From Microcoleus sp. (GTDB lineage: Bacteria; Cyanobacteriota; Cyanobacteriia; Cyanobacteriales; Microcoleaceae), in the NCBI GenBank assembly GCA_042408215.1, contig JAYFMW010000007.1, forward strand, positions 64,001 through 128,000: DNA of 64,000 bases, in the 5' to 3' direction. The notes below the pieces were generated by a model. The model was not told where the DNA came from and did not search any database. It was given only the letters and a program-made list of their open reading frames with translations. Below, piece by piece: positions 32,604 through 57,337 of this stretch. The position numbers and the translations under genes are program-made. Each line of letters starts with the position of its first letter. The first letter of the stretch is position 1.

Positions 32604-33401
32604 ATGAATGCTGAAGAATTACTAAGACGATATGCTGATGGTGAAAGAGATTTTGCTGAGGTTGATTTGAGCGGTGTCGATTTGAACAAGGCAAATCTCC
32701 TTGATATCAGTCTCGCCAATGCCAATCTGATTAATGCTAACTTTAGTTATGCTGACTTGATTAATGCTAACTTGAGTGGTGCTAACTTGAGCAATGCTAA
32801 CTTGAATTGTATTGACTTGAACGACGCTAACTTGAGCAATGCTAACTTGAGCGAGGCTCACTTGGATGGTGCTCAGTTGATTAATGCTAATTTTAGTGGT
32901 GCTAACTTGAGAGAAGCTTGGTTGGAAGGGGCTGACTTGAGTGGAGCCAATCTAAGTAATGCCTGCTTGGAAAATGCAACTTTGCACTATGCTGACGCGA
33001 CTGATGCCAACCTCAGTGGAGCTAATTTGAAAAATGGTTTTTTATCTAGGCTCAACTGTGAAAATACTAACCTCACTGGAGCCGACCTCAGCGATGCAGA
33101 CCTCGGTGAAGCTGGTTTTGACAAAGCAACTCTAATTGGCGCGAATCTAAGTAACACCAAGCTGCATCAAACAGGGTTTGAAAATTCCGATCTTACTGGA
33201 GCTAACTTTAGTGGTTCAATTATGGATGAAACATCGTTTGATGGTTCAAATCTCAGTCACGCTAATCTGATGGGAGTTCAGCCAGAACCTAGTCTGATGG
33301 CAAAGAAGGTTAGGCTTATGGGAAAAGGGTTTGAAGAAGCTATCTTATGTAAGACTATCATGCCTGATGGTAGCATCCGCAATGATAATTGTACAGCTTG
33401 A
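32604..33401 (+). CDS. Pentapeptide repeat protein (candidate immunity)
   Basis: A(N/D)LXX repeats; N-cap EELLRRYADGERDF, C-cap LCKTIMPDG. Confidence 0.92.
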   Translation: MNAEELLRRYADGERDFAEVDLSGVDLNKANLLDISLANANLINANFSYADLINANLSGANLSNANLNCIDLNDANLSNANLSEAHLDGAQLINANFSGANLREAWLEGADLSGANLSNACLENATLHYADATDANLSGANLKNGFLSRLNCENTNLTGADLSDADLGEAGFDKATLIGANLSNTKLHQTGFENSDLTGANFSGSIMDETSFDGSNLSHANLMGVQPEPSLMAKKVRLMGKGFEEAILCKTIMPDGSIRNDNCTA

Positions 33402-33626
33402 TTAATGCTAAACATTACTGAAAACATATCTACCTTCCGTTTGAAAATTCATCATATTTCTGTTTCGACCCACGTCTGATAAATTAATATAAATCCGCGT
33501 TAAATATCCTCTTTATAATTAACCTCAGCAGCGGTAATATGAAGTTGAGGGCGATCGCATTGGAATAGCAAAACAAAGAATAATTGTACTATAATTCAGA
33601 AGTTAAAATAATTGACTAGATAATTT

Positions 33627-34427
33627 ATGAACGCTGAAGAATTGCTCGAACGGTATACCAGTGGAGAAAGACACTTTGCTGGGGTTGACTTGAGCGGTGT
33701 CGATTTGAACAAGGCAAAGCTCATTGATATCAATCTCGCCAATGCTATTTTGATTAATGCTAACTTGACGAGTACTCATTTGAGTGGTGCTGACTTGAGT
33801 GGTGCTAACTTGAGCGAGGCTAACTTGGATTGTATTCACTTGACCGAGGCTAACTTGACCGAGGCTAACTTGACCGAGGCTAACTTGGATGGCGCTGAGT
33901 TGATTAAGGCTAATTTTAGTGGTGCTAACTTGAAAGGAGCTTGGTTGGAAGGGGCTGACTTGACGGGAGCTAATCTAAGTAATGCCTGCTTAGAAAACGC
34001 AACTTTGCACTATGCTGACGTGACTGATGCCAACCTCAGTGGAGCTAATTTGAAAAATGGTTTTTTATCTCGGCTCCACTGTCAAAATACAAACCTCACT
34101 GGAGCCGACCTCAGCGATGCAGATGTCACTGAAGCTGGTTTTTATAAAGCAACTCTAATTGGCGCAAATCTGAGTAACACCCAGTTGCATCAAACAGGGT
34201 TTACTAATTCAGATCTTACTGGAGCAAACCTCAGTGGTGCGATTCTAGAGGAAACATCATTTGATGGTTCAAATCTGTGCAATGCTAATCTGATGGGAGC
34301 TAGAGGAGAGCCTGAATATGGCCCAAATACAACAATCAATCTTTGCGGAGAATGGGAAGACGCTACCTTGTGCAATACTGTCATGCCAGATGGAACGATC
34401 CGAAACGATAATTGCCCAGAGCGATAA
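33627..34427 (+). CDS. Pentapeptide repeat protein (candidate immunity)
   Basis: Paralog 1023 bp after the previous gene. Confidence 0.92.
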   Translation: MNAEELLERYTSGERHFAGVDLSGVDLNKAKLIDINLANAILINANLTSTHLSGADLSGANLSEANLDCIHLTEANLTEANLTEANLDGAELIKANFSGANLKGAWLEGADLTGANLSNACLENATLHYADVTDANLSGANLKNGFLSRLHCQNTNLTGADLSDADVTEAGFYKATLIGANLSNTQLHQTGFTNSDLTGANLSGAILEETSFDGSNLCNANLMGARGEPEYGPNTTINLCGEWEDATLCNTVMPDGTIRNDNCPER

Positions 34428-34649
34428 ATGCTAAACATTGCTGAAAACATATCTACCCTCCGTTTGAATATTTATCATATTTCTGTGTCGATAGGCGTCA
34501 GATAAATTAATACAAATCCGCGTTAAATATCCCCTTTATAATTAACCGCACCAGCGCGACTAGGAGGTTAACTGCGATCGGATAGGACTAGCAAAACATA
34601 GGATAATTGTACTATAATTCAAAAGTTAAAATAATTGACTAGATAATTT

Positions 34650-35447
34650 ATGAACGCTGAAGAATTGCTCGAACGGTATACCAGTGGAGAAAGACACTTT
34701 GCTGGGGTTGACTTGAGCGGTGTCGATTTGAACAAGGCAAAGCTCATTGATATCAATCTCGCCAATGCTATTTTGATTAATGCTAACTTGACGAGTACTC
34801 ATTTGAGTGGTGCTGACTTGAGTGGTGCTAACTTGAGCGAGGCTAACTTGGATTGTATTCACTTGACCGAGGCTAACTTGACCGAGGCTAACTTGACCGA
34901 GGCTAACTTGGATGGCGCTGAGTTGATTAAGGCTAATTTTAGTGGTGCTAACTTGAAAGGAGCTTGGTTACAAGGGGCTGACTTGACGGGAGCTAATCTA
35001 AGTAATGCCTGCTTAGAAAACGCAACTTTGCACTATGCTGACGTGACTGATGCCAACCTCAGTGGAGCTAATTTGAAAAATGGTTTTTTATCTCGGCTCA
35101 ACTGCCAAAATACAAACCTCACTGGAGCCGACCTCAGCGATGCAGACCTCGGTGAAGCTGGTTTTTATGAAGCGACTCTAATTGGCGCGAATCTAAGTAA
35201 TACCAAGTTGCATCAAACAGGGTTTTGGAATTCTAACCTAAGTAAAGCTAACTTTAGTGGTGCGATTATGGATGAAACATCATTTGATGGTTCAAATCTG
35301 TGCCACGCTAATCTGATGGGAGCTAGACCCGATCCTGAATATGACGACTCAAATATAATCAATCTTTGCGGAAAATGGGAAGACGCTACCTTGTGCAATA
35401 CTATCATGCCAGATGGAACGATCCGAAATGATAATTGTACAGCTTGA
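34650..35447 (+). CDS. Pentapeptide repeat protein (candidate immunity, facing cassette E)
   Basis: Paralog 1023 bp after the previous gene. Confidence 0.92.
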   Translation: MNAEELLERYTSGERHFAGVDLSGVDLNKAKLIDINLANAILINANLTSTHLSGADLSGANLSEANLDCIHLTEANLTEANLTEANLDGAELIKANFSGANLKGAWLQGADLTGANLSNACLENATLHYADVTDANLSGANLKNGFLSRLNCQNTNLTGADLSDADLGEAGFYEATLIGANLSNTKLHQTGFWNSNLSKANFSGAIMDETSFDGSNLCHANLMGARPDPEYDDSNIINLCGKWEDATLCNTIMPDGTIRNDNCTA

Positions 35448-35635: not shown

Positions 35636-35640
35636 ATTTA

Positions 35641-38600
35641 TTATTCCTCCTCAAGTTCCTCAGATTCACCCTCAAGCTCCTCAAGTTCCTCTTCCGGCTC
35701 TGTAGGGTCTTCGGGAAGTGGCGGTGGATTTGATTTCCAAGGAAGGCTAGCCCAAGTATCTCCAATAGATTCTTTACTGGGAAAGATGTATTTGATATCT
35801 TTGATATCTTGTTTTATTTCTTGAGGAAGAAGAGGGAATAGATCGTAGCCGATCTTGGTTTCTATTTCTTCAAGAGACCAGACAGGACGTTGAGTGAGAT
35901 CGTCAATCTTACTCCAATCCTTGTTTCTCCAGCCTTCGGCAATGTTACGGGGGTCTTGATTTGGATAATAAAAACCAACGGCATATACAGGAGTTGCGCT
36001 AGGGTCTGCACCCGGCTTATCCAAAACCACCATGACTTTCCATATATTTGCTGGAATTTGAATATCTTTACCGCCCGCATCCAAATTGTCCTTAATGCCA
36101 TCAATGCCATTAATGACATAGACTTCTTTACCGTTTAGCGCAAAATCTTGCCCGTAGTTTTCAAATTTCTCCCAAAAACTTACGCTATTATGTTTCGTCT
36201 GCTGTGGAACAATATTTGTTAGCAGATTGACAGCTTTACTGTCCTTGAGAGTAATACTGCGAGATGCCAGAGGTGTTTGATGACCTCCAACATAAGGAGC
36301 TCTATTTTTATAATCAGCGTTTGTCACTTGGTAAAAATCTGGTGGAAGGCTGCGATCGTTAGTGAAACCGCGCTTACTAGGATTTTGCTCTCCTGTCAAA
36401 TATATCGATGATTTATTGATCTGGAAACTCGCCCAGTTAGGTATATTTCCAGTACCGTTGTAAGACAGAGTATACTGCGGTTTTTCAAGCAGCAAGTTGT
36501 CTTTATAGAGATTCCCATCATAAGCAGCACCGCTATACCTTGCTGGACTGCTGCCATTCTTGGGTGTCGGTTCCCCAAATTTAAGAGAACTACTCTTGAA
36601 AAAGACATCATCTAAGTAAACCGCGTCGCTACCTTCCAATTCAAATTTGAGCGTCGCTGTTTTACCTCGGAACTTATCTAATTCTTTTTGTTGGGTTGAC
36701 CCTTGATAGAAAGTGTCAAATACATTAAAAGTTTCAAAACCTCTAGTCGCATATCCAAGTTTACGGGCAGCATCTTTTTCGAGATCGTTGTTGTAGAAAG
36801 AGTCTGATGTTCCTGTTAGAAAATTAGCTTCATCGAGAAGAATAATTTCAGTTATCTCTTCACCAGAAGCTACATCTTTTAGAGTAACTTTAAGCTTCCC
36901 ATGTCCATTAGCTGCTTCTTTGGGAACATGAATGTTGAACCGCAAAGACCCCCAATCTGGTACAACAAAGCGGTTGTGCGTCATGCTGTCACCACCCTTT
37001 AATTCCAGAGCATAGTTAGAGAAGTTAGGGTCATTACTATCAATACCCATCCTTTCTAGATAAGAGGTTCCAGGGATCTCATTGTTGTGTCGTAGGCTAC
37101 GTTGTTTGAGACTATCAATGGTACTCCAATTTACTAAATGCTTCGTGGGGTCTGCCAACTTTGATGTGGCACTATTGTGGAAAGACCACCCCGGAATTTC
37201 CTGAGAGATAGCATTCCGACCCAAATTTTCGGCAGCACTCTTATTAGGAATGTACTGGTCAAAATTCCCATTAAACAGAGTAGGAACCGCATAATCTCCC
37301 CGCATCCCAGCTTCAAGCGTATTATCAAAACTCACCGGAACGCGCCCAGTAGGGCTATACTGACGCTGCTCTTTACCTCCACCCAAAACAGAATAAAACC
37401 AACCCTCACCAACCCCTTCACCATTGCCATTATCATACCAAGGTTTAGCTGCCGGGAAATTCGGATCGAACATTTCGGGTAAACCCATTTTACCCAACAT
37501 ATCGTTAACTGCTTGAGGCTTCTCAGAAGCCTCCACATGAGGATACTGAAGTAAAACTTCCTCCAAGTCTAAATCAACTGTCCCCGCATACCATCCAAAT
37601 GCTCGCTTGTGCGTCCCTGCAATAACATCATCCTTAGTAAACCCAATCCGACTGTTTATCCGATCTGGTTCCTCCTCACGAGTACCGAGTAAAATCTCTC
37701 GGTCTGCCTTCCCTAAAGTAACACCCGACGCTTTAGGAAAATTCAGTCCAGCGGGTTTGGGATTCTTATCCAATTCCTCTTGTGGAAGTAGACCCAAAGC
37801 ACGACCATTAGGAGTAGCAGTACCACCATTCGGGTCAGCCACAGTTTGATAATAGTTATCAGCAAACGTAACATTATTCCAAACCTGAACCTTGGGTTCG
37901 TAGAAATCGCTGAAATTTGTTTCGATAAATTCCAGTAAATTTAATTTCAAACTAGGTTGGTAGAAATCGTGCGGGTCGATTGTTGTCATTTGGAGGTCTC
38001 GTGAGGCCATAGATTTGCCGCCCGCTTGGGGGAAAAAAGTCCCTAAACGCTGTACGATTTCGCTATTGACAACAGTACCCCGACTGAAACCCATGAAGTG
38101 CAGTGGCGAGTTGAACAAATCCCCCTGAGTGCGAATCAGGTTCCCTTGGCTGTCGTACAACCGCTTTAATTGATTGTTTTCATACTCTCCAACCTTACCC
38201 CCTAATGCCAGATCCAACTGCACCATAGAAGCAAACAAAGCATCAGCCGCGCCCTCAGAAAAGCCAACGTCAGGAATGACTGATTCTCTGTCCAACGACC
38301 ATTCATTCAGCAACACTAACGGTTTGTTATTGTTGAGGTATTTAATCTCCTTTCCATCTATAACCACACCTTTTTTTAACTTATTTGCCAAAGTTGATAA
38401 ATAAGCTGTTTCGCTGGTGTTAAGCCCGTCGGTCAACTCAGTTATTACCCGTCCCTGTAAATCTATAGGAATCCAGTTGCCTGTAGGCTTGTCGTAACGC
38501 ATAATTAACCCGCTGTTTTCCGGTGTATTGCCGCTAACAGTGGCAATTTTATTGGTCATTTGGAAAAAGGAATCAGGAATCCCAGACTGCACCGGCAAAA

Positions 38601-39094
38601 GTGTAAAACCATGAGTCAACACGCTCACGCTGCTGAAAGGACTGTTGCTAACAGGAAGTAAAGTTTTAAACTGCCCCAAATCTTTGGTCACAGCGCCGCT
38701 CTTACTCACAGCTTCAACAGCAAAATTGTAGTTCTGGCCCGCAGTAAGACTCCTCGGTAGCGTGAAGTTAGTGCTAGTATTTGCGGGGTCATTTAAAGGT
38801 TGGTCAAGAGGCGTAATCCCGTCGTGCCCGTACCACTTGCCAGTATCTTTCTTCCAAGTCGCCGTCAGAATCCGGTTGGGATTGAAGTCGTCATAACCGT
38901 TCCAAGGCTTGGAAAGAAGTTGACGCTTTTGTGTTTCCGAGAAGCCGGGAAGGAGTGCCGAATCTGATAAATCGACGACTTTATCCCAGGGCAATAAACC
39001 CTTGCCTTGCTCGAACGTACTGACAAAAAGATTGACCTCTTTCACATTCTCCCAACCAGGAGCAAACTGCCATTGAAAAGTAGGAGTCAGGTCA
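35641..39094 (-). CDS. Cassette E: 5'-truncated toxin copy (hydrolase domain plus NucA-like nuclease, acidic tail)
   Basis: Homology to the longer copies begins abruptly at DLTPTFQWQFAPGW; GFSRG; EKPQYTLSYN...NWASF...GGHQTP...TNIVPQ. Confidence 0.82.
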
Positions 39095-39145: not shown

Positions 39146-39964
39146 ATGAACGCTGAAGAATTGCTCCGACGGTATGCTGCTGGTGAGAGGAATTTTGCTG
39201 GGGTTGATTTGAGCGGTGTCGATTTGAACAAGGCAAATCTCCTTGAGATCAATCTCGCCAATGCCAATCTGATTAATGCTAACTTGAGTTATGCTGACTT
39301 GAGTGGTGCTGACTTGAGCAATGCTAACTCGATCAATGCTAACTTGCGTTGTATTGACTTGATTAATGCTAACTTGAGTAATGCTAACTTGAGCGAGGCT
39401 AACTTGGATGGCGCTCAGTTGATTAATGCTAATTTTAGTGGTGCTAACTTGAAAGGAGCTTGGTTGGAAGGGGCTGACTTGACTGGAGCTAATTTCAGTA
39501 ATGCCTGCTTAGAAAAAGCCAACTTAGGTCATACTGACTTAACTGATGCCAACCTCAGTGGAGTCAATTTAAAAAGTGGTTTTTTATCAGGAGTAAACTG
39601 TGAAAATACTAACCTCAACGGAGCCGATATCAGCGATGGAGATATCACTGAAGCCTACTTTGAAAAAGCGACTCTAATTGGCACGAATCTAAGTAATACC
39701 AAGTTGCATCAAACTGGGTTTTGGAATTCTGACCTAACTGGAGCTAATTTCAGCGGTGCAGTTCTCGATGAAACTTCGTTTGAAGGAGCCAATCTCAGCA
39801 ATGCTAATCTAAAGGGGGCTCAACCAGAACCTACTCTCCTCACACAGAGGATTAGGTTGATGGGGAAAGGGTTTGAAGAAGCTATCTTATGTAAGACTAT
39901 CATGCCTGATGGCAGTATCCGCAATGATAATTGTATGCCTGAACAATCCAATGAGCTAATATAA
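39146..39964 (+). CDS. Pentapeptide repeat protein (candidate immunity, facing cassette D)
   Basis: Close paralog of the 32604-35447 genes. Confidence 0.92.
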   Translation: MNAEELLRRYAAGERNFAGVDLSGVDLNKANLLEINLANANLINANLSYADLSGADLSNANSINANLRCIDLINANLSNANLSEANLDGAQLINANFSGANLKGAWLEGADLTGANFSNACLEKANLGHTDLTDANLSGVNLKSGFLSGVNCENTNLNGADISDGDITEAYFEKATLIGTNLSNTKLHQTGFWNSDLTGANFSGAVLDETSFEGANLSNANLKGAQPEPTLLTQRIRLMGKGFEEAILCKTIMPDGSIRNDNCMPEQSNELI

Positions 39965-40066: not shown

Positions 40067-43000
40067 TTATTCACTCTCAAGTTCCTCAGATTCCTCTTCT
40101 GGATCTGTAGGGTCTTCTGGAGGTGGCGGTGGATTTGATTTCCAAGGAAGGCTATCCCAAGTATCTCCAATAGATTTTTGCTTTGGAAAAATGTACTTGA
40201 TATCTTTGATATCTTTTTTGATTTCTTGAGGAAGAAGAGGGAATAGATCGTAGCCGATCTCGTTTTCTATTTCTTCCAAAGACCAGACAGGACGTTGAGT
40301 ACGATCGTCTATCTTACTCCAATCCTTATTTCTCCACTTTGTGGCAATCTTACCAGGGTCTTCATTTGGATAATAAAAACCAACGGCATAAACGGGAGTT
40401 GTGGTAGGATCTGCACCTGGTTTATCCAAAACCAGCATGACTTTCCACAAATTAGCAGGAATTTGAATAGTTTTACCATCGGCATCAAATCTATCCTTGA
40501 TTCCATGAATGCCATTAATGACATAAACTTCTTTACCTTCCTTGGCAAAATCTTGCCCGTAGTTTTCAAATTTCTCCCACAGTGGGCTGTTATTTTTAAT
40601 CTGTTGTGGAACGATATTAGTCATCAGATTGACAAATCTCTTGTCTTTTATCGTAATGCTGCGAGCTGCTAGAGGTGTTTGATGACCTTGAACGTAACCC
40701 AAGGGGACTGCGCTATCGTAATCATTACTACTTACCCGATTAAAATTGGGTGGAAGGCTTTTGTCTATAATAAAAGATCGCTCAGTAGGATTAGGCTCAC
40801 CTGGCAAATATATCGATGATTTATCGATCTGGAAACTAGCCCAGTTAGGTATGTTTCCAGTACCGTTGTAAGACAGAGTATACTGCGGTTTTTCAAGCAG
40901 CAAGTTGTCTTTATAGAGATTCCCATCATAAGCAGCACCGCTATACCTTGCTGGACTGCTGCCATTCTTGGGTGTCGGTTCCCCAAATTTAAGAGAACTA
41001 CTCTTGAAAAAGACATCATCTAAGTAAACCGCGTCGCTACCTTCCAATTCAAATTTGAGCGTCGCTGTTTTACCTCGGAACTTATCTAATTCTTTTTGTT
41101 GGGTTGACCCTTGATAGAAAGTGTCAAATACATTAAAAGTTTCAAAACCTCTAGTCGCATATCCAAGTTTACGGGCAGCATCTTTTTCGAGATCGTTGTT
41201 GTAGAAAGAGTCTGATGTTCCTGTTAGAAAATTAGCTTCATCGAGAAGAATAATTTCAGTTATCTCTTCACCAGAAGCTACATCTTTTAGAGTAACTTTA
41301 AGCTTCCCATGTCCATTAGCTGCTTCTTTGGGAACATGAATGTTGAACCGCAAAGACCCCCAATCTGGTACAACAAAGCGGTTGTGCGTCATGCTGTCAC
41401 CACCCTTTAATTCCAGAGCATAGTTAGAGAAGTTAGGGTCATTACTATCAATACCCATCCTTTCTAGATAAGAGGTTCCAGGGATCTCATTGTTGTGTCG
41501 TAGGCTACGTTGTTTGAGACTATCAATGGTACTCCAATTTACTAAATGCTTCGTGGGGTCTGCCAACTTTGATGTGGCACTATTGTGGAAAGACCACCCC
41601 GGAATTTCCTGAGAGATAGCATTCCGACCCAAATTTTCGGCAGCACTCTTATTAGGAATGTACTGGTCAAAATTCCCATTAAACAGAGTAGGAACCGCAT
41701 AATCTCCCCGCATCCCAGCTTCAAGCGTATTATCAAAACTCACCGGAACGCGCCCAGTAGGGCTATACTGACGTTGCTCTTTACCACCACCCAAAACAGA
41801 ATAAAACCAACCCTCACCAACCCCTTCACCATTGCCATTATCATACCAAGGTTTAGCAGCCGGGAAATTCGGATCGAACAATTCGGGTAAACCCATTTTA
41901 CCCAACATATCGTTAACTGCTTGAGGCTTCTCAGAAGCCTCCACATGAGGATACTGAAGTAAAACTTCCTCCAGGTCTAAATCAACCGTCCCAGCATACC
42001 ATCCAAATGCTCGCTTGTGCGTCCCTGCAATACTATCATCTTTCGTAAACCCAATCCGACTATTTATCCGATCTGGTTCCCCCTGACGAGTACCGAGTAA
42101 AATCTCTCGGTCTGCTTGCCCTAAAGTAACACCATTAACTGTCGGAAAATTCAGTCCCGCAGGTTTAGGATTCTTATCCAATTCCTCTTGTGGAAGTTGA
42201 CCCAAAGCACGACCGTTGGGAGTAGCAGTCAAACCATTAGGATTAGCCACAGTTTGATAATAGTTATCAGCAAACGTAACATTATTCCAAACCTGAACCT
42301 TTGGTTCGTAGAAATCGCTAAAATTTGTGCTGATAAAACCAGGTAATTGTAAATTCAAACTAGGTTGGTAGAAATCGTGCGGGTCGATTGTTGTCATCTG
42401 GAGGTCTCGGTTAGCCATAGATGTTCCACCAGCTTGGGGGAAGAAAGTTCCTAAACGCTGTACGATTTCGCTATTGACAACAGTACCCCGACTGAAACCC
42501 ATGAAGTGCATGGGCGAATTGAACAAATCCCCCTGCTGGCGAATCAGCTTCCCTTGGCTGTCGTACAACCGCTTTAATTGATTACCTTCATATTCTCCAA
42601 CCTTACCCCCTAATGCCAGATCCAATTGCACCATTGAGGCAAACAAAGCATCAGCAGCACCTTCGGAGAAGCCAACATCGGGAATAACTGACTCCCTATC
42701 CAGCGACCATTCATTCAGCAACACTAACGGTTTGTTCTTGTTGAGGTATTTAATCTCCTTTCCATCTATAACTACCCCGGCTTTTAACTTATTTGCCAAA
42801 GTTGATAAATAAGCTGTTTCGCTGGTGTTAAGCCCGTCGGTCAACTCAGTTATCACCCGTCCCTGTAAATCTATAGGAATCCAGTTACCTGTAGGCTTGT
42901 CGTAGCGCATAATTAACCCGCTGTTTTCAGGTGTGTTGCCGCTAACAGTGGCAATTTTATTTGCCATTTGGAAAAAGGAATCAGGAATCCCAGACTGCAC

Positions 43001-43662
43001 CGGCAAAAGTGTAAAACCATGAGTCAACACACTCACGCTGCTGAAAGGACTGTTGCTAACAGGAGGTATGGTTTGAAACTGCCCCAAATCTTTGGTCACA
43101 GCCCCGCTATTACTCACAGCTTCAACAGCAAAATTGTAGTTCTGCCCCGCAGTAAGACTCCTCGGTAGCGTGAAGTTAGTGCTAGTATTTGCGGGGTCAT
43201 TTAAAGGTTGGTTAAGAGGCGTAATCCCGTCATGGCCGTACCACTTGTTAGTATCTTTCTTCCAAGTCGCCGTCAGAATCCGGTTGGGATTGAAATCGTC
43301 ATAACCGTTCCAAGGCTTGGAAAGAAGTTGACGCTTTTGTGTTTCCGAGAATCCGGGAAGGAGTGCCGAATCTGATAAATTGACAACCTTATCCCAGGGC
43401 AATAAACCCTTCCCTTTATCGAAGGTACTGACAAAAAGATTAACCTCTTTCACATCCTCCCAACCCGGAGCAAACTGCCATTGAAAAGTCGGAGTCAGGT
43501 CACTTGTAGTTGCACCAGACCCCTTCAAATTCAGCCAGTCAGTCGGTGCAATGCTCAAATCCCGTAAATTTCCCCCAGTACCGATGGGTGCGCGTGTTGT
43601 ACCTGACGGCACCCCATAAGTAAACTGATTAGCAGGTCGGTTCTCCTGAAGAATCCCATAGT
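40067..43662 (-). CDS. Cassette D: 5'-truncated toxin copy (hydrolase plus NucA-like nuclease, acidic tail)
   Basis: Homology begins at YGILQENRPANQFTYGV; GFSRG; VQGHQTP...TNIVPQ. Confidence 0.82.
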
Positions 43663-43724: not shown

Positions 43725-43837
43725 AAACATGAATGTTGAACTTCAAAATACCGGATTTAGGCACAACAAACTGATTGTGTGTAATGCTGTTATCAGATGT
43801 TAATCTCAAAGCATAGTTAGGTTTAGCTGGATCGTAG
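43725..43837 (-). pseudogene. Degenerate toxin fragment
   Basis: YDPAKPNYALRLTSDNSITHNQFVVPKSGILKFNIHV matches cassette C YDPAQPNYALKLTSDDSITHNRFVVPDWGTLRFNLHV. Confidence 0.75.
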
Positions 43838-43858
43838 TAGAGATTTAGGAGGAGAGTT

Positions 43859-44800: not shown

Positions 44801-44950
44801 ATAAACTTATAAATTTAATATTATACCAATATTAATTTAACAGTTTTGAGTAGCGATAGGAGACCAGAAATAATCAGAATTTTATTCATAAAAGGTAAGA
44901 GTGAAAGTGCGTGCTAATATGAAAGCATAAACAACTTGCATAAGAAAGCT

Positions 44951-45631: not shown

Positions 45632-45721
45632 ATAAGTTTTCTGTATTAAAAGTAGCGAGGAAGAATTGATTCGCCCTCGCTAGTTAAGCAATTATTGCCA
45701 AGTGTTAGCTACTACCAAAAC

Positions 45722-47331
45722 TTAGGTAACTACATTTGGAAAATCATTAACTGTCACTGAACCAATATAGGATCGGCTCTCCAATATATTTTCAATTTCA
45801 TCTGGGAGGTTGGAGAGAAGGTCAAGACCTGTAAGTTCTTCAATCCTGTCAACAGTAGTTATGTTTTCCGGATCAAACCACGGTATTCGCGTTGTACCGG
45901 GATAATTAGGAAAATTAGGTAGCATGACAGCTATTACAGGTGTATTTGCTGTTACATCTGCTATACCTTGTCCAGGTCTTAGAGGTACAATCACTTTCCA
46001 CATGAATTCAGGAAGATTAATGTTCTCTATATTGAGGGGGTTATCGGGTGGTAATTCGTCATTATACGATTCATATCCACCCGCAATGTTATACAATTCC
46101 CAACCACGATCCTTAACAATTCCCTTACTAAAGACTTCTAACGCTCGCCATGCTCCTCTTTGATTCTCCCCTGGTTCTTGTGGAAGTAAGTTCGTTGTCA
46201 GGAATGTAGCAAACTGATCTTTCTGAGTTCTTTGACGCTGTTCTCTAGCAGTCAAGTGACCTCGGTCAAAACCACTATTTCGGTATTCCCATCCCTCGGT
46301 TGTATCTAATTCACTGGGAAGTGCGCTATCTGACCTCCAAGGGAAAGGATCGTAAGGCTCTGCACCACCCCCCTGTGGTGATCCAAGATTGCCCAACCAC
46401 GTTTTGTTGAGCTGCCAACTCACCCAATTAGAACCTTTGTTACTCTCATTATAAGACAGCGAATACTGTGGTTTTTCAATCAAATAGTTGTTGGCATTAG
46501 CAGCGGCATTCGGTCTAGCTACTTGTCCGTTTAAAGTGGGATTACCAAACATGAGATGAGTGCTCTTAAAGAAGACATCATCAAGATAAACTGTATCATT
46601 CCCTTCCAACTCAAACTTAAGCTTAGCTGACTTGCCCCGCAACACTTCAGGTACATCAACATGGAAAGTTTCAAACCCTACATTACCATAACCAATCCGG
46701 TTAGTGTCAGTATCAGCATAGCCTGTAGGGTAAGCGATTTCTGCTAAATCACCTGGATTAACTCGACCATCGGCCACTCTCAAGTCAATATTACCTATGG
46801 GTTGATAATTTTCATAACCAGGTTCATCGCCTTGGATAGAAACCTTTAACGTGCCACCATTAGGATTAGGAACATGAAGATTAAATCGCAAAGTCCCCCA
46901 ATCAGGCACAACAAACCGATTGTGTGTAATGCTGTCATCAGATGTTAATTTCAGAGCATAGTTAGGTTGGGCTGGATCGTACCCTACCAGTGTCCTGTAA
47001 TTGTCAAGACTAGGAATATCCCTCCAATCAACTAACCTACTTGTCGGCGACGCAATATTTGACGTACCGCCGTGAAAAGACCAACCAGGAATCGCATCAG
47101 AAATCGCATTTCGGAACAAACTACGCGGATTAAAGACAGCATCAAAATTGCCACCAAAAAGAGTAGGAATCGCAAAATCTCCCCGCATCCTGCTTTCTGC
47201 TGTATTGTCAAAAGAAAGAGGCACGCGCTCCACATTATTAGTCGGTCGCAAATTAGCGATCGCACCCGTATTAGGATCTTTAGTCAAACCACCTCCAACA
47301 ACAGAATAGAACTAACCAGTACCAATACCCT
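45722..47331 (-). CDS. Cassette C: shortest 5'-truncated toxin tip (NucA-like nuclease)
   Basis: Homology to cassette B starts at GIGTG(W>stop at 47312-47314)FYSV; FGNPT, EKPQYSLSYN, NWVSWQL, FDRGHLT, TNLLPQ. Confidence 0.82.
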
Positions 47332-47397
47332 TCTTTCTAATCAAAAAATGAGGTATTATTAACAGCCTACAATGATTATAAACTAAGGACAAAAGTT

Positions 47398-47985
47398 ATG
47401 GATGCCGAACAATTACTAAGACGATACGCTGATGGTGAAAGAGATTTTGAAGGTGTTGACTTGAGAAGGGTTGATCTATGTAATGCCAATTTGAGCGGTA
47501 TTAATTTGAGAAATTCTTATATTGAAGAAAGTGGGCTGATACACATCAATTTGAGCGGTGCCAATTTAGAGGGTATTGATTTAAGGGATATTGTTTTGGA
47601 AAATGCCAACTTGAGTGCTGTGAATATGATCGAGGCTAACTTAAGTGAAGTCAATTTGATGTGTGCCAATATAACAGATGCAAATTTTAATGGTGCTTGC
47701 CTTTCTAATGTCCGCCTTCTCTACGCTAACCTATCGAGAAGTATATTCAGAAATACCAAGATGAATGAAGTTGATTTTGATGGTACTAACTTGGCCGATG
47801 CTGATTTTAGAGATGCTAAAGATGCTTATCTTGATGATATATACATCTTCGATCCCTACCTAAGATATGCTGCCGTTAAGCCTGTTAGCCCGAATCTTAT
47901 TGAGAGAGGAGGGGCTATTTTTTGTCACACTATTATGCCAGATGGGAGTATCTGTAATGACGGTTGCGATCGAATCAGATCGTGA
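47398..47985 (+). CDS. Pentapeptide repeat protein
   Basis: EQLLRRYADGERDF...FCHTIMPDG; resembles the first module of 43859. Confidence 0.9.
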   Translation: MDAEQLLRRYADGERDFEGVDLRRVDLCNANLSGINLRNSYIEESGLIHINLSGANLEGIDLRDIVLENANLSAVNMIEANLSEVNLMCANITDANFNGACLSNVRLLYANLSRSIFRNTKMNEVDFDGTNLADADFRDAKDAYLDDIYIFDPYLRYAAVKPVSPNLIERGGAIFCHTIMPDGSICNDGCDRIRS

Positions 47986-48059
47986 AACCAGCCACCTATC
48001 CTATGGAGAACTACTAACAATAGGATCTATAATCGTAATAGAGATTTAGGAGGAGAGTT

Positions 48060-48539
48060 ATGGATGCTAAAGAATTGCTCGAGAGGTACGCTGCTGGAGA
48101 AAAAGATTTTAGCGGAGTTGATTTGAGTGCTGTAAACCTTGTCCGCGCCTACCTTCCCGAAATTAACTTGAGCAACGCCAACTTGAGAGGAGCTAACTTT
48201 GTCTGTGCTGAACTCAACGGAGCCAATCTTAGTGGAGCCGATTTAAGTAGAGCTGCTTTGAGCGGAGCGACCTTGGAAAATGCCGATTTGAGTAGAGCAG
48301 ATTTAACTGAAGCGAATTTAGCTGATTGTATTTTGGAGGGAGCAGATTTAACTGAAGCTGATTTGAGCAGAGCGAACCTTATCGAAGCTCCCCTTATTAA
48401 TGCAAATTTGACCAGAGCTATACTGGATGATGCTTTATTAGGCAGCCCTTTGCTTGAAGGAGCCAATTTGACCGGGGTTGATTTGAGCAAGGCCAGAATG
48501 GATGTCTTTCCCTACGGATATGAGTTCTTAGACACCTAA
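48060..48539 (+). CDS. Pentapeptide repeat protein lacking the MPDG C-cap (possibly truncated)
   Basis: KELLERYAAGEKDF; same gatttaggaggagagttATG leader as 43859. Confidence 0.85.
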   Translation: MDAKELLERYAAGEKDFSGVDLSAVNLVRAYLPEINLSNANLRGANFVCAELNGANLSGADLSRAALSGATLENADLSRADLTEANLADCILEGADLTEADLSRANLIEAPLINANLTRAILDDALLGSPLLEGANLTGVDLSKARMDVFPYGYEFLDT

Positions 48540-48821
48540 ATTACTCGTTGCGATCCACGAAGAAATGAGGAGAAGGGAGAGAGAGGATTCATGCTTCAAA
48601 AAATGACTAGCCTTTCTAGTTGATTAGTTAACTCAATAGTTCTCACGTAAAGTTCACTAATACTCGTCATCTTTTTAGTTATTTCTAAGGAAGATTAATT
48701 GAAATTAATTCCTCAGTATTCAAAAGTGCAAATTAAATGCAGACAACTAGCATCAGACATTGGCAAAGTCTTGCTATATTGATAGTATAAACTGATATTC
48801 TAAATAGAGGGAGGGAAAAAC

Positions 48822-49310
48822 TTGAACGTTGAAGAACTATATAGGCGCTACGCTGCCGGAGAGAGGGATTTCTCTGGAGTTGATTTAAGTCATGCTAACT
48901 TAAACGTTGCTAAAGTGGGTGATATCAGAGACCTCCCACCAGGTCAAAATGAGTTGATCGGTATCAATCTCAGCGGTGCAAACTTGACCAGAGCTATTTT
49001 GAGTTTTGTAAATCTCAGCGGTGCAAACTTGAGTAGTGCAAACCTAGAATTTGCGATCCTATTAGGTACTATATTGACTGGTGCCAATCTGAGTCATGCT
49101 ATCCTAAATTATGCCGACGAGGTATGCGACCTAATTGATGTTGACTTGAGAGAAGCCAGTCTATTTTGTACGCGATTGCTTGGTTCTAACCTAACCAGAG
49201 CTAACTTGATGGGGGCAACATTGAAAATCGTACCAAAGGGTCGTTTGATTTTTAGTGATACCATCATGCCAGATGGTACTATTAATAATGAAGATGAAAA
49301 TTATGGTTAG
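48822..49310 (+). CDS. Pentapeptide repeat protein (facing cassette B)
   Basis: TTG start after gaggag; paralog of 44951; DTIMPDG cap. Confidence 0.88.
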   Translation: MNVEELYRRYAAGERDFSGVDLSHANLNVAKVGDIRDLPPGQNELIGINLSGANLTRAILSFVNLSGANLSSANLEFAILLGTILTGANLSHAILNYADEVCDLIDVDLREASLFCTRLLGSNLTRANLMGATLKIVPKGRLIFSDTIMPDGTINNEDENYG

Positions 49311-49484
49311 CCTAAATCATTTGTGCAATAGCGTGTAATAGTAATGCTTGCTGAAGCAGCTTTTCCGATATTTTTGCTTTGCACAACTCATTTAGGTTCG
49401 CTATAGTTCAATCTCATTAAAACCCAAGAGCCTGATAAGCCAAGTCAGCTTGACAGCAGGCTACTTTGTTTGTTGTCTAGATCA

Positions 49485-52400
49485 TCAGCCTCCTGATTCG
49501 ATTATTTCCTCAATCTCATCAGGAATATTTGAGAAGAAGTCAAGCCCAGTCAAAGCCTCGATTTCGTTAACAGTCAGCTTCCATGTTTGCCAATTTCTCC
49601 AAGCAGCTTTGTTTGGTATATCTGGACGACTTAACCCCAACAAAGCATTGAATGGGTGAGGAACTGATAGCGCAAAATCTCCATTATTACCTACTGTGCC
49701 ATTTGGATTAGCTGGTACGTGATCTGGTTCAACCTCGTTGGGTGTTAAAATGCCGTAAGTTGCAGCGTTAGCAATTGTGACACCAGCAGGAGTCAGTCCT
49801 GGTTGCTCTAAATCCAGTACAACCTTCCAAGTCCAACCAGGAATATTAATTCCTTTATTTATAAGAATTTGGGGATTTGTTAATGTGGTAGGTTCCGAGT
49901 AATGACTGAAACGCTGCGGATCGGGATTGCTGCCATAACCCCCAGCCACAACATAAAGCTCTTTTGGGGTCTCAGTAATTGGATCGCTCTTAGTAATCTT
50001 TTTAAGAAAATCGTCAAAACTTGTCCATACTGCACGATCTGGGATTTCTCCAGTAAACACCTCATTGTTATCAAAATGCTGTGGAATTACATTTGTCAAC
50101 AGAAAAGTAGCTATGTTGTCTTTTTCGCTATTAGTTCGGTGATCCGAAGGTAGCAGATGCCCCTTTCGATATTCACTGCCAACGTAGTCTTCATTTACGA
50201 TCCGACCCCAGCTTTCAGGAATACTTTGATCTTCAATAAAGTTGATTTTTGAACGAGGAGTTTCATCCAGCCACTTTTGATTCATTTGCCAACTTACCCA
50301 TTTAGGAGTTTTACTGCTGTCATTGTAAGCAGTCGCAAACTGTGCTTTCTCTAGCAAATAGTTATTGCTATCCGCAACATTAAGGTTAGTTGTATTCCTC
50401 GCATCTGAGGGATTTCCAAACAGTAGATGTTGACTTTTGAAGAATACATTATCTAAGTAAACAGTACCGCCACCAACAACTTCAAACTTGAGGGTTGCTA
50501 CTTGACCACGCAAATTGTCAGGTACCTCAAATTGGAAAGTCTCAAACCCTTGAATTCCATAATCAATCTTTTGAGTGTCTGCTAAGTAAGAACCTCGTGT
50601 GCGATTTGCTCGCGTCAAGTTGACCGATGATGAAACGCCTAAAGGACTTCCATCTGCTGCTTCTAAAGTGACCAAAACACTTCTTCCCGAACCCAGTTCT
50701 GCTTCTGGAACATGGAGGTCAAACCGTAAATTTCCCCAATCAGGTACAACAAAACGGTTGTGAGTAATACTTTTACCTGATTCTAGCTTCAGAGCATAAT
50801 TTTGTTGAGTGCGATCGACTCCAATTCTATCGAGTTCTGCGTGCAAAGCCGGAGCATCACTTGCAGATAGCTGATTCACATCAACGAGATTATTTGTAGA
50901 CACACTAGCCGATGTTTCATCATTATGAAAAGACCAGCCCGGAATCGCATCAGAAATCGCATTTCGGAACAAACTACCCGGATTAAAAACAGCATCAAAA
51001 TTGCCACCAAAAAGAGTAGGAACCGCAAAATCACCCCGCATCCGCCTTTCCGCTGTATTGTCAAAAGAAAGAGGCACGCGCTCCAGAGTATTAGTCGGTC
51101 GCAAATTAGTAATCGCACCCGTATTGGGATCTTTAGTCAAACCACCTCCAAGAACAGAATAGAACCAACCAGTACCAATACCCTCATTGGGAGCATTAGC
51201 AGCACCCAGAGAAAAGTTAGGTTGCCCGCTATATTTAGGCGTGTACCAGGGGTTGACACGAGGGTCTTGAGGACTTCCACTGAAAGAAAAGTCTCTGTCA
51301 AACAGTTGCTCGTAATGCCCATCACCCCGACGCCGCGAGATCGGGTCAACAGGTTGCGTACTAGAAGAATTTTGGCGATACTCAGTTAGTCCCAGGTCAG
51401 CAGTCCCCGCATACCACGTCAGGACTCGCCCGTGCGGCCCCCCAGCGAGATCGTCTTTCGTAAACCCCGGCAAACTATTTTCATAACCATCAGCATTGCG
51501 TCGAGTACCCAAGAAAACCGTTTCGTCAGGTTTCCCTAGAAGTTCCCCCGCACTGTTTCTGGGAAATTTGAGACCTGCTCTAATCTCTGTTCGCAGAGCA
51601 TCGGGCCCGCTCAAATTGGGAATGTCTCGACCCGCAGGTGTCAGCGTAGGAATTTGTGGAATGCCTTGGTCTAGCCTGGGTACCGTTTGGTAGTAGTTGT
51701 CGGCAAAAGTCACATTCTTCCAAACCTGAACCTTCGGTTCGCGGAAATCTGCAAATCCCGCTTCTCCTAGAAATGGTAACTGTACCGAAAAACTTGGTTG
51801 GTCAAAATCATGGGGATCTAATGTAGTCATCTGGAGGTCGCGAAACAGAGAATTCTCCTTCCCGCCAGCTAGAGGGAAGTAAGTCCCTACACGCTGAATC
51901 ATTTCGCTATTGACCACAGCCCCCCGACTGAAGCCAACAAAGTGCAGTGGCGAATTGAAAATTGCCCCCTGAGAGCGAACAAAATTCCCTTGGCTGTCGA
52001 ACTTAGCACCACCTCCGAGCGACTGATCTAGCTGCACTAGCGAAGCAAAGAAACTATCTGCTGCTCCCTCCGTGAAGCCAGAATCGGGAATAGCTGACTC
52101 ATTATTTTGAGACCAGTCAGGCAGAAGCACTAATGGTTTGTTGGCTTGGAGGTAGGGAGCTATATAGCTCGACAAAGCAGTACGATAACTGGGAGCGGCT
52201 TGGTCAAAACCATTAGGAAAATAAGTTGAATTACTAAAGAAATCACCCAAGACTTGCCCGTATTTATCGACCGGAACCCAGTTACCTGTGGGCGAGTCGT
52301 AGCGCATGAGCAATCCTTCACCCCCAGTAGTAGCAATGCTGTCAGCCATTTTGTAGAATTCGCTGGGAATCCCTGGTCCGGTAATGACCGGAGGCTTAAA

Positions 52401-55400
52401 ACCGTGGGTCAGTACAGTGACGCTGCTGAAAGTGCTGTTGCCGTTGAGAGCAGGCGGTGGCGATGTTTTGAACTGCCCAACATCGAGATTTCGCTTTCCA
52501 TCCTTGCTCAAAGCTTCAACAGCCCAATGATAAGTCTGACCAGCCGTCAGAGTCCGATTATCGGGCAGTGTGAACTGGGTATTGGTGTTTGAAGGGTCAA
52601 GGGGTAGACCACCAAGCCCCACCCAGCCTTGACCGGGCTTCCAAGTCGCTGTCAGGATGCGGTTGGGGTTGTAGTCATAAGTACCGAACTGGGAGTTCCA
52701 TTTTGCTAACAAGTTTTGCTGCTGCTGTGGGCTGAGATTATTGAAGTTTGGATTTTGGATATTGGCGAGATCCTCCCACCTATCCTCTGGCAACAAACCC
52801 TCCCCTTTATCGAAGGTACTGACAAAAAGATTAACCTCTTTCACATCCTCCCAACCCGGAGCAAACTGCCATTGAAAAGTCGGAGTCAGGTCATTTGTAG
52901 TTGCACCAGGCCCCTTCAAATTCAGCCAGTCAGTCGGTGCAGAACTCAAATCCCGTAAATTGCCTCCAGTACCGACTGGTGCGCGTGTTGTCTGCGGCAG
53001 CACCCCATAAGTAAACTGATTAGCAGGTCGATTCTCCTGAAGAATCCCATAGTCAGCAGCAATACTAATAGCCGGATTTATATCATCAATAGGAACCCTT
53101 GTGAAATCAGCCGCAGTCACAGACTTCGCCGTAGTAGCATTGAAGAAAGGAGACTTAACACCCCTGTCAAGGCTGTCAATTTGGAATTGACCAGGATTGT
53201 CCAGGGTTTTGATGATCTCCTCGACATTAAAGGTATAAACCCCCCCAGCACTACCAGGAGCCGGGTAAGAAGAAAATAGGGATTTATTGTCATTCGATAG
53301 TACCAAATCGTTCGTCAGCCCCCCAGGAATCGGTCTGGTAGCAGCTACTAATTGAGGATTCGGTCCCAAGGGGTCTTTGATAATACCAATGTTGCTCCCA
53401 GAGCGCGGATCCGCATAGGGGTTGACATAATTTCTATAATTGCGACCCGCAACGAACGCATATCGCCCGTCACGCATTACCGTTACAGAAACTCCCTCGT
53501 TGACATCAAAGTAATCGTTGGCAAAACCCAACCCTAAAGGAATATAGCGGACAGCGGTAGCAAAATTGAGGGGGTCATCAGACGTAATTTCCAGCACGCC
53601 AAAGCCCTTGCTGTCATCCTGAAGGGGTAGAAAATCGGTTTGTATGCTAGCCAATCCGTTGGTGAAAACCATTTTTCGGGGGTCAGCGGTAGCTGCTATC
53701 CCCTCTGTCTCTGAAGCGGTGGCAATTACTCCAATCTGCTGGTGCCACTTCCGCTCGTTAGAACCCTCAGCGATCGGTTTGTCGCGAGGGTCAATGTTGA
53801 CCGCATAAATGCTACGGTTGCGTACTCGTTCATTATCGTCGGAACCCGTAGCGAAGAGCTTGCGCCCGTCGCTGCTGATGGCCAACTGGCTCAGTCCCAG
53901 TGGCGATGTAACGTTAATGGTTTGAACAACAGTGTGATAGGTTGCTGAGAAGGGGTCGATGTCGAGGACGTAGATGTTGGGCCGATCGCGATCGGCAATG
54001 TAAGCATAATTATCCTTGGGGTCGATCGCGATCGACTTAGGTTTAGCCCCCGCTGGTAGAACAATAGGATTGACACCCGGAGTATTGGGCTGGGTGTCCA
54101 CTTGTCGCAGTACCATCGGATCGACCATCGCGACGCCGCCTGATTCCCTTAAGACTACATAAACCCTCGTGCCGTCGCTAGTCACAGCGCTCGCTTCTGC
54201 GGCATCAGTAGACTTGTCGCCTACGGGGATTCTGGAAATTAACAAGTCCTTGCTTCTGGTAGCTTCTACCACTGCTTTTGGATTAGAACCCTGAATAACT
54301 ACCAGTTCGCTCAAACTTTTGGGGTTGATTGGGGGGAAGTTCTGGGTTGCAAAAACGTACTCTGCCCCCTGTGGCAGACGTATTGGATTGCTGCTGTACT
54401 CAATAGGTTTATACACCGGTGCCGTGCCGTTTTGCTCGACCAACTGATTTTGCTTCCTGGTCAAAACTATGCCGGATGCACCCAGGGGTAAGGTGTTGGG
54501 AACTTGTACGGCAACTTCAAACTGGTTGCCCCCAACAGAACGGCTGCGGTTGGGCAATATCGTTCCAGGGTACACCTGATTCCCGACCTGAAATTCCACA
54601 ACCAAGTCCTCAAACCGACTGCCTTTAGAGTCGCTGGCATTGTTGACCAGAATGTTGCCCCCCGTTAGGAAAAGAAGTGGTTCGCCTTTCTCAAATTGCT
54701 GGTTGTTCTCATCCTTGAATTTCAATTCAGCTTTTTGGAGGACAGGAGGTGTTGTGGGGTCAGAGGTGGTTGGGGCTGGCATATTCAAAGCTGCCTTAAA
54801 TGTGGCGGTGCCGTCGTCGTTTCGCTGGACACCCACCTCTGTGACGACGGGAAGTCCCACCTTGGGGATTGCTACCACCTGCACTGAAGATATGTCGCGA
54901 GTTACGGTAAAGGCTGGAGTGGTAACGAATTTGTCCGGGTCGATTAACTGACCGATATTTCCCAGGGGGTCAATGATGCCAAAAAATGCTAGGGGGAAGT
55001 TGTAGTTGAGGGTAAGCTGACCTTTGACTAAGGTGGCGCTGCCTGTCGGACTGGCGTAGACTACTGCGTATTCGCCTGGTCTGACCACGCCTGGATAGGG
55101 AGGAGACTGGGTGCGAATGTTGCCGTCATCTCCGACTATGCCTGATTCTTCTTGCAGCCAAATCGGATTCCAAGTGCCGATTGCGTCAGGAATTGCTCCT
55201 TTTCGCAGGAAGTATGCCACAGTTCCTGGTGCTAATCCGGCTGGTGCTGGTATTGCTAACTGGGCGGGTATATTCAGGGAGTTATCGCTAAAGTTTAAGT
55301 TGAAGGCTCCTGCAAATTCAAATCCCGGTGGTAGTGGTAGGGACAAGTTTTGTTGGTTGACTGGGGCAATGCTGACGGTTGCATTCTGTTTGAGAGCGCC

Positions 55401-56500
55401 CGGAGGTATCATGACTGCTAGGGTTCCGTCGCTTGAGTTGATGATGCCACCGTCGGTTCCCAAGGCTGTTGTGCCGATTTTCGGTGCTTCGACTCGAACT
55501 GGAATGGTGGCGGATGCGGTTCCGTGAATGGCTGTGACGGTGGCATCGCCAATGCCGACTGCTGTAATGGTGCCGTCGGGACTGACGTTGAGGATGTTGC
55601 TGTTGTTGCTAAAGTAGCGCGTACCTGTGCTGGCTGCGGTTAAGTTGGCTTCGGTGAAGTTGGAGTTTAAGCTGAGGGAGAGTTTCCGCGTTGCGCCAAC
55701 AGATAGGGAGACGGCATCTGGGTAGGGGTCTAGTCCGTACATTTCGGCTAGTATCTGATGCAGTTGAGCGTCTGTTGTGGGTGCTGGCATCGTCCCAATT
55801 CGGATTGGGGTGACTGCTTGTAGGTTATTTCGACTTGCGCTCAAAACTGAAGTACCGTTGGTTAAACCTGTCACTTTCCCCGTTGGATCAATTGGTGCTA
55901 CTTCTGGATTTATTGAAGTGTAAGTTAGATAAGAATCTGGGAGCACTACACCTTTTTGGTCGGCAAAATCTCCGAGCACAATCAATTCCGTATTTTCTCC
56001 TGCATTGAGGCTCGGATTTCGCTTCACAAAATCTAGATTCAGCAGGGGAACATCGCTGACATTGACTGTCACGCGCGCGGGCGTTGAACTCCCAAAAGCG
56101 TCGCTGGCAAGGAAATCAAAGCTGGCAATTCCAGAGAAGCCGATTGCTGGTTTAAACGATGCTTTGTTCGTTAAGGGATTGAAAATTACAGTACCGTTTA
56201 CTGGACCCTGGACGCTAATTGTGAGAGGGTCGCCCTCTGCATCTGTGGCAAGATTGTCTAATGAAATAGTTGTCTCTAATTCTGTATAAGTCCGAGTGCT
56301 TGTCGGTGAAACAACGGGCGGATTGTTGTCAGAATTCGGGGGATTGGCTTCGGCGAGCAATTGTTGTCCTAAGGTCGTATTGCGCCATTCTTTGTCAGGG
56401 TTGATGACTGTATCTAGCAGCGGTGCGTTTCCTGTTGCGCCACTAATTTTAAAGATTAGGTCATTGTAATCTCTGTCTGAGTTCGCTGATGATGCGGGTG
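49485..56500 (-). CDS. Cassette B: long 5'-truncated toxin copy (DUF4114-like end, Ig-like repeats, beta-propeller, hydrolase, NucA-like nuclease)
   Basis: Frame is open to ~56546 without ATG or signal peptide and reads SDRDYNDLIFKISGATGNAPLLDTVINPDKEWR upstream of the ORF call; GFSRG; YRKGHLLP...TNVIPQ. Confidence 0.82.
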
Positions 56501-56614
56501 ATTGAGAAATGCTTGTAATTGCAGTAGTATTTGAATAAAAATAGTTTTAAACATACAAATACTCTTACCTGGGATTCTGGTTATTATTGTAAATAAATTC
56601 TAGGAGACAAAGTT

Positions 56615-57337
56615 ATGGAGAGAATAGATGCAGAAGAACTACTCAGACGGTACGCGGCTGGAGAAAGAGACTTTGCAGGCCTTGACCTAAGTGGAATTCT
56701 TTTGGGTAGACGTTACGCTGACGAGTTAATCAGGCGGTATCAAAGTGAAGAAAACACTCGAATTGGTGGAGTCAACCTGCGCGGTATAAATCTGAGTGGC
56801 GCTAATCTTGAAAAGGCTAACCTGGAAGCTGTTGATTTTATGGGAGCCAATTTGAGTGGAGCTAACTTGACTCGAGCTATATTGCAGGTGGCGAGGCTCA
56901 ATGAAGCTAACCTGAGCGGAGCTAACCTCAGAGAAGTTATCCTTAGCTCGGCTCGACTGCATCAAACTAACTTGAGTGGGGCTATTTTGGAAAGAGCAAT
57001 ATCCTATGATGCCGAATTCATAGGGACGATTCTGAAGCGAGCAAAGCTCAGGGGGGCTGGTTTGGAAACTTCTCGCTTTACTGGCGTTGACTTTACCAGT
57101 GCTGACTTAAGAGAGGTAGGTATGGGACCAGCTACCATTGAGCAATGCAACTTTACCAAAGCCAATTGGAATCGAGGGTGTATTCAACGGTGTACGTTTA
57201 TCGATTGCGATTTTACCAAGGCTAGCTTTAGCAAAGCCGGTGCAATAGAATCGAATTTTATTCGGTGTAATTTTACAGATACTAAATTGGAGAAAATGAA
57301 AATTTTTGATGCCTCTACAACAGATTCTATTTTTTAA
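56615..57337 (+). CDS. Pentapeptide repeat protein (facing copy A)
   Basis: EELLRRYAAGERDF N-cap; divergent from the other nine. Confidence 0.9.
   Translation: MERIDAEELLRRYAAGERDFAGLDLSGILLGRRYADELIRRYQSEENTRIGGVNLRGINLSGANLEKANLEAVDFMGANLSGANLTRAILQVARLNEANLSGANLREVILSSARLHQTNLSGAILERAISYDAEFIGTILKRAKLRGAGLETSRFTGVDFTSADLREVGMGPATIEQCNFTKANWNRGCIQRCTFIDCDFTKASFSKAGAIESNFIRCNFTDTKLEKMKIFDASTTDSIF

Follow-up and report, generated by a model that had tools for sequence, protein, structure and literature searches.

Why should every nuclease in a cyanobacterial gene array be faced by a gene for a pentapeptide-repeat protein (PRP), and does the pairing reflect toxins and their cognate immunity proteins? 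The question is raised by a stretch of 64,000 nucleotides from the 7.36-Mb genome of Microcoleus sp. (GenBank assembly GCA_042408215.1, contig JAYFMW010000007.1, positions 64,001 to 128,000; C7:64001-128000 in our numbering), which we refer to as the window. Five of its minus-strand open reading frames (ORFs), A to E, each have an Endonuclease_NS (PF01223) domain at the C-terminus, and ten plus-strand PRP genes are arranged tail to tail with them. An earlier note, made from the letters of the window alone, had named nine of the ten, all of which lie at the coordinates it gave, but left out the tenth at 48060-48539, and had seen in the PRPs the pattern expected of cognate toxin-immunity pairs. 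That proposal now has strong comparative support, from the near-universal linkage of the two genes, from partners that are specific to the kind of tip, from PRPs that track the nuclease rather than its flanks and from the separate tracking of D and E types, although the argument built on B and C was wrong in detail, since the motifs they share mark recombination arms. On the sequence comparisons that follow, we think it probable that acidic, type-matched PRPs constitute a diversified class of cognate immunity proteins for swappable Tox-NucA tips on a giant trunk.

Is the adjacency more than chance? There are about 60 PRP ORFs in 7.4 Mb, yet a PRP is the first neighbour of all seven Endonuclease_NS matches in the genome, which argues that it is. 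On contig C29, for instance, a B-type nuclease 87% identical to B lies opposite two PRPs of the 48822 type, and on contig C8 (L002:5228-6427) the trunk common to A-E terminates in an ART-PolyVal domain; behind it come small Cys-rich genes and OGFr_N, and then a nuclease fragment with two PRPs. Beyond this genome, a search with the trunk gave matches in 42 of 144 genomes from the family and in 13 of 401 sampled from the phylum. The regions compared were the stronger trunk matches plus 38 named loci, with loci L003-L033 (duplicates or short-flank controls) excluded from pairing; once identical sequences were dropped, 137 complete nuclease domains were left, four of them at contig ends and 133 evaluable. 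A PRP lies within 600 bp of 132 of these 133, in about 74 genomes, on the strand opposite to the nuclease in 123 cases and on the same strand in nine.

The controls behaved differently. Of eight standalone NucA-like genes none lay within 1.5 kb of a PRP, and of 13 ART tips none within 600 bp, while a small Cys-rich protein follows 12 of those 13. The ART-PolyVal tips on the common trunk (L002, L036, L052, L071 and L072) have orphan tip arrays of their own, and their partner is a protein of about 60 aa with a CxxC...C...H pattern, fused in L052 to OGFr_N; the ART-PolyVal tip and the small Cys-rich protein are likely to be a second toxin-immunity class. OGFr_N itself was considered as the ART immunity protein and rejected, as it is not the first neighbour and PMC9503650 does not mention it. 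Among distant trunk relatives with HExxH metallopeptidase-like tips (L121, L122 and L123), long genes that look ankyrin-like by sequence, one of them scanned, come next in all three examined. Two trunk-only genes without a tip (L119 and L124) lie opposite arrays of small membrane-protein genes.

Does the PRP follow the nuclease, or simply the DNA in which both lie? In 107 of the 132 pairs the trunk was usable and the PRP complete, with its caps. Nuclease relations were taken from a quick tree and PRPs were compared by distances and clusters in place of a tree, because the repeats align poorly. The partial Mantel correlation of PRP with nuclease given the trunk was 0.35, as against 0.06 for PRP with trunk given the nuclease, and cluster agreement, as an adjusted Rand index, was 0.80 versus 0.66. 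Similar PRPs occurred in none of 26 comparisons with close trunks and distant nucleases and in 10 of 23 with distant trunks and close nucleases. Sixteen of the 21 nuclease types with several members are faced by a single PRP cluster, and within the group with the GHQTP motif the C-terminal loop of the facing PRP is basic for all three D-subtype nucleases and acidic for all three of E subtype. In these distances and clusters PRP type is shown to follow nuclease type, and not the trunk or the other flank; the congruence across genomes that the earlier note had proposed as a check is largely there, with some discordant loci.

A different gene architecture offers what is the best control against plain linkage. 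Outside the family, the nuclease as a rule sits in the interior of a giant ORF; these ORFs reach about 11,000 codons and contain Ig, PKD and Calx-beta domains, and one of them adjoins an HlyD gene. The PRP is then encoded on the antisense strand within the giant gene, directly behind the nuclease and codon-aligned in the five cases examined for this. All 41 complete internal nucleases, in about 39 genomes, have such a nested PRP, a count that is biased upward because only the first five cases came from a trunk-only query and the later queries contained the nested stretch. Codons that would be stops in the antisense frame (TTA, CTA and TCA) number 0 of 7,085 in nested PRPs versus 973 of 21,689 in free PRPs, and in five close nested pairs the ratio of nonsynonymous to synonymous substitution rates (dN/dS) is 0.22 in the PRP frame versus 0.93 in the giant's frame, which, as we read these substitutions, merely has to stay open there. 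Downstream of the nested PRP there is usually a HExxH domain. In 32 of 34 nested genes the sequence beyond the PRP was long enough for a comparison of its two neighbours, the nuclease on one side and a conserved domain on the other; PRP follows nuclease with 0.54 as against 0.13 for the downstream domain, and conflicts were resolved toward the nuclease, over the equally adjacent domain, in 27 of 32. The pairing also crosses architectures, for the nearest nuclease to A outside the family, on a Calothrix brevissima plasmid (L137), carries a nested PRP whose nearest relative among 73 free PRPs is of A type. In the records viewed, annotation leaves the PRP unlisted beneath the giant gene or shows just the PRP with a 3' fragment of the giant ORF. 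PRPs with zero to two antisense-stop codons and no complete nuclease adjoining (L134, L140, L144, L183 and L189) are probably nested-type immunity cassettes that have become orphans. A single giant ORF of 8,564 codons (L115:2-20000) holds two modules of trunk, nuclease and nested PRP, together with RHS and DUF6531 matches.

How did the types come to be distributed as they are within the window? Here some of the earlier claims hold and others need to be redrawn. D and E, which share the GHQTP motif and are 83% identical across their last 360 aa, do lie opposite one tight PRP family (32604, 33627, 34650 and 39146), 70-90% identical inside and 36-50% identical to the other six window PRPs, and A does have a divergent PRP, with 28-41% identity to the others. 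B and C, which had been grouped by their shared motifs, are not one nuclease type: their C-termini are 44% identical and fall into separate clades of the quick nuclease tree. What they have in common is a trunk block with TKDPNTGAI (47073-47331 versus 50926-51184; 259 bp, 94% identical as DNA) and, as had been noticed, a VEELYRRY...PGQN start of their PRPs (44952-45162 versus 48823-49033; 211 bp, 86%), but the latter does not track nuclease type. Over the first 62 residues of 12 VEELYRRY PRPs, distance is 0.23 within and 0.21 between nuclease types, whereas the remainder after residue 62 does track it, at 0.26 within versus 0.85 between. Likewise, the EES.L...LEG...RDI.LENA motif said to unite the more distal PRPs 47398 and 43859 is present in both, but the two are just 46% identical, which is background; it occurs in five of 284 PRP ORFs examined, each distal to a nuclease.

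That the two shared blocks are recombination arms follows from exchanges in three relatives. In L035 and L036 the window-B cassette holds the C nuclease and the body of the C PRP exactly between the two blocks, and in L034 the B trunk bears a C tip while the trunk in the D position bears an A tip together with the A PRP. Across relatives this trunk terminates in any of many nuclease types or in ART-PolyVal. Judged from these junctions, tips and their PRPs are shown to swap jointly between short homology arms. The locus has the hallmarks of a polymorphic toxin system: the N-terminal trunk is conserved and the C-terminal effector domains are interchangeable, orphan tips with homology arms (B-E) lie downstream, and there are adjacent genes whose type follows that of the toxin.

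The PF01223 scores of A-E are 99-120 bits versus a cut-off of 23, and the closest solved structure to the window nucleases is Anabaena NucA (E=7e-36; PDB 2o3b and 1zm8). Among 80 nucleases the catalytic His is kept in 79, the first Asn in 77 and the Glu/Asp in all 80, the second Asn having been checked by eye; in B, Asp replaces Glu, and D and E are without the DR of DRGH. The linked PRPs have a median net charge per 100 aa of -7.3 (n=14) versus -0.65 for unlinked ones (n=36; p=2e-5), with the outward charge of the D/E PRP family strongest on two to three faces, and PRPs are under purifying selection (dN/dS 0.36, 23 independent pairs). The nearest natural solved relatives of the window PRPs are HetL (3du1) and Np275-Np276 (2j8k); both PRPs scanned, of the ten, fall below the Qnr, MfpA and HetL family cut-offs, and 39146 passes the Alr5209 model only.

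If the PRPs do inhibit their nucleases, is a weapon needed to explain it? They might instead provide NuiA-like self-protection for a surface-anchored nuclease that scavenges nucleic acids or remodels biofilm, with inhibition that is perhaps broad and not type-specific, and this would sit well with the secreted scavenging nuclease NucA as closest solved relative, with nested nucleases internal in adhesin-like Ig/PKD/Calx-beta giants, one of them beside an HlyD gene, and with the absence of an evident mechanism of entry into target cells. We nevertheless regard it as unlikely, because orphan tip arrays and orphan PRPs fit conflict over housekeeping, many nuclease types have matching PRP types and the ART tips on the common trunk have a partner of their own. 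More doubtful still is that a PRP came by chance to lie beside an ancestral nuclease and was copied along with it, the two proteins never interacting. In every case the two genes adjoin and are exchanged together, the VEELYRRY start, part of the shared pattern, is pure cassette history and PRPs are common in this genome, all of which would suit such co-duplication; yet the link persists in convergent, co-oriented and nested geometries and in many families, the PRP goes with the nuclease where the flank on its other side is just as close, no PRP stands behind ART tips and retention of the gene inside a giant ORF required the purging of three codons. Might the nested PRP even be a shadow, the by-product of a functional repetitive linker in the giant's frame that was released later as a gene? 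The linker frame is also a five-residue repeat, rich in Gln, Ile and Ser, but we give this next to no credence, considering that selection acts on the PRP frame and hardly on the linker frame in the five nested pairs, that PRPs retain a start, an N-cap and a C-cap and that 91 free PRPs are conserved despite stops in the antisense frame.

Several observations weigh against the cognate immunity reading itself. No PRP lies within 5.9 kb of the complete nuclease at L092, five of the 21 multi-member nuclease types are faced by PRPs from more than one cluster, and at L077 and L059 a PRP of the expected type exists but does not come first beside the nuclease. Three window PRPs (47398, 43859 and 48060) are at a distance of at least 0.61 from every nuclease-facing PRP in the compared set. 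The Mantel tests treat kin as independent, which overstates their significance, and because nuclease and PRP always form one physical cassette, co-inheritance is not fully separable from binding specificity by sequence. The diversifying selection expected at outward pentapeptide positions did not appear, every position class having a dN/dS below 1, the highest being 0.66 at i+2. Finally, neither a hydrophobic N-terminal stretch nor an RTX motif was seen in A as an export signal, and the gap is a real one, because a protein cut off after the nuclease lacks the C-terminal region of the nested giants.

How, then, might a cognate immunity system of this kind work? Each PRP would bind and block its own nuclease type. 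Full-length protein A would be exported and deployed against competing strains, B-E would be silent spare tips, and the PRPs of the spare tips, which lie on the opposite strand and have their own starts, would remain expressed and widen immunity, with the distal PRPs as orphan immunity genes. More speculatively, the acidic beta-helix may sit in the DNA-binding cleft as a DNA mimic, with specificity perhaps set by variable loops and the C-terminal cap. A bolder version, to which we would give an even chance, is that one toxin family spread through the cyanobacterial phylum has a DNA-mimicking pentapeptide beta-helix antidote encoded antisense inside the toxin gene, as one inseparable, swappable piece of DNA, that dozens of mutually specific pairs form a kin-recognition code and that convergent arrays derive from nested ones via a stop codon after the nuclease. 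The nested-then-convergent order is a matter of parsimony only, as the linked PRPs of this genome showed no relic of nesting in their codon usage (4.6 versus 4.9 antisense-stop codons per 100).

The array itself reads, on this interpretation, as one complete toxin gene followed by spare parts. Copy A, the sole full-length gene, has its 3' part at 57419-64000 (minus strand), with DUF4114, Ig-like domains and a C-terminal NucA-like nuclease (DRGH); its open frame of 3,204 aa extends past the window to about position 67,033, and its trunk has propeller-like and GFSRG hydrolase-like parts. A 16-residue tandem repeat lies within the low-complexity N-terminus of the protein (about 66050-66470 in window numbering, past the window end). 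The GFSRG alpha/beta-hydrolase-like motif (window 37200-38700 and equivalents) is found in 56 of 84 trunks examined; atlas matches of this domain to alpha/beta hydrolases reached just 0.82-0.84 and a search of the PDB returned none, and it is possibly a second effector or a processing domain, a lead only. Opposite nuclease A lies its likely cognate inhibitor (56615-57337, plus strand, as are all the PRPs). B-E are 5'-truncated copies of A's trunk on the minus strand. Copy B (49485-56546; nuclease type B, RKGH) is without about 950 N-terminal aa and includes the trunk homology arm at 50926-51184; it is faced by a likely cognate inhibitor with a TTG start (48822-49310), the first 211 bp of which are the second arm, and beyond this are two distal PRPs, the tenth in the window (48060-48539) and a likely orphan immunity gene (47398-47985), both without a cognate nuclease in the compared set. 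Cassette C (45722-47331) is an orphan tip, a short trunk arm with nuclease type C (DRGH), faced by a likely cognate inhibitor (44951-45631) that contains the PRP-side arm at 44952-45162. The next PRP (43859-44800), distal, two-capped and 313 aa long, again has no cognate nuclease in that set, and a trunk remnant at 43726-43836 (minus strand) is left from a deleted cassette. Cassettes D (40067-43660; VQGHQTP) and E (35641-39094; VGGHQTP) are faced by PRPs that carry a D-type (39146-39964) and an E-type (34650-35447) C-terminal loop, respectively, and are followed by a second, distal E-type PRP (33627-34427) and a distal PRP with a D-type loop (32604-33401), the latter at a distance of 0.05 from the PRP opposite a D-type nuclease in relative L063.

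A 98-bp direct repeat lies at 32393-32490, and a second copy, 97% identical, just upstream of gene A (C7:131324-131421). These are the only two full copies in the genome, they flank the whole 35-kb array and they may mark it as an integrated island. A 442-aa ORF at 28377-29705 has RRXRR and HNH-like motifs and may be IscB-like. Promoter and terminator scans gave results at chance level (38 versus 36.8 and 15 versus 14.3). Four contig-only RNA libraries overlap parts of 43800-50400, one of them spanning 43847-47300 at about 92-96% identity; such contigs give neither strand nor level and may contain DNA, and they were excluded from the evidence.

What most cyanobacterial PRPs do has long been an open question. 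A cognate role would assign a large subset of them a specific and cheaply testable task, with more than 100 natural toxin-partner pairs on hand, and, if true, NucA-type toxins would gain a further class of immunity protein and mat-forming cyanobacteria a system of competition among kin. In the nested form two genes are conserved with one wholly embedded antisense in the other, an arrangement whose rationale is plain and which annotation hides, and orthogonal nuclease-inhibitor pairs would serve as tools. A full-text search of mostly open literature, supplements excluded, found no description of cyanobacterial Tox-NucA-PRP pairs or of a nested antisense immunity gene, although such neighbourhoods may be given in the tables that supplement PMC3482391.

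How does the locus compare with known systems? Tox-NucA polymorphic toxins (motif GH, N, N, E) resemble it in their conserved trunk, variable C-terminal toxin, orphan tip cassettes and adjacent candidate immunity genes (PMC3482391). In the portion of that text searched, however, the listed immunity proteins are Imm36, SUKH and NTF2, the listed range is without cyanobacteria and the word 'pentapeptide' does not occur, whereas here the first neighbour was a PRP 132 times out of 133 and the partners are convergent or nested antisense, not co-transcribed as in the systems described there. NucA of Anabaena PCC 7120, of the same nuclease family, has a cytoplasmic protein inhibitor, NuiA, that shields the producer, but NucA is a single small nuclease and its inhibitor is not a PRP (PMC13522737); NuiA (PF07924) had no match in this genome, nor in the control genomes, and PRPs, not a NuiA gene, adjoin all seven nuclease matches. 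Closer in the kind of partner are YjbI-like pentapeptide-repeat genes near GH-E His-Me toxins, whose authors report finding no annotated immunity gene (PMC5714182), and the PRP-like Tsi6a proposed as putative immunity for a Stenotrophomonas Rhs tip (10.64898/2026.07.13.738213). In both, a pentapeptide-repeat gene lies beside a nuclease-type toxin, but the toxin families are others, delivery runs through a type VI secretion system and the relevant passages describe neither diversified, type-matched PRP families nor nested antisense genes. TseG/TsiG of Pantoea was set aside as a precedent, as the pentapeptide repeats there belong to the effector.

The gyrase-protecting PRPs Qnr, MfpA and McbG have a DNA-mimic role. 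Together with HetL, which acts through binding of a protein partner (PMC7476756), they have the beta-helix fold in common with the window PRPs, but these proteins shield a target or act as competitors of a peptide, and none is known to be a cognate nuclease inhibitor. For the nested form, the nearest parallel is the pair of long antisense embedded ORFs olg1 and olg2 of Pseudomonas aeruginosa, which likewise show stop-codon depletion and purifying selection (PMC8850804). Those genes are described there as taxonomically restricted and recent, whereas the nested PRP has a known fold, occurs in many cyanobacterial families and exists also as a free gene.

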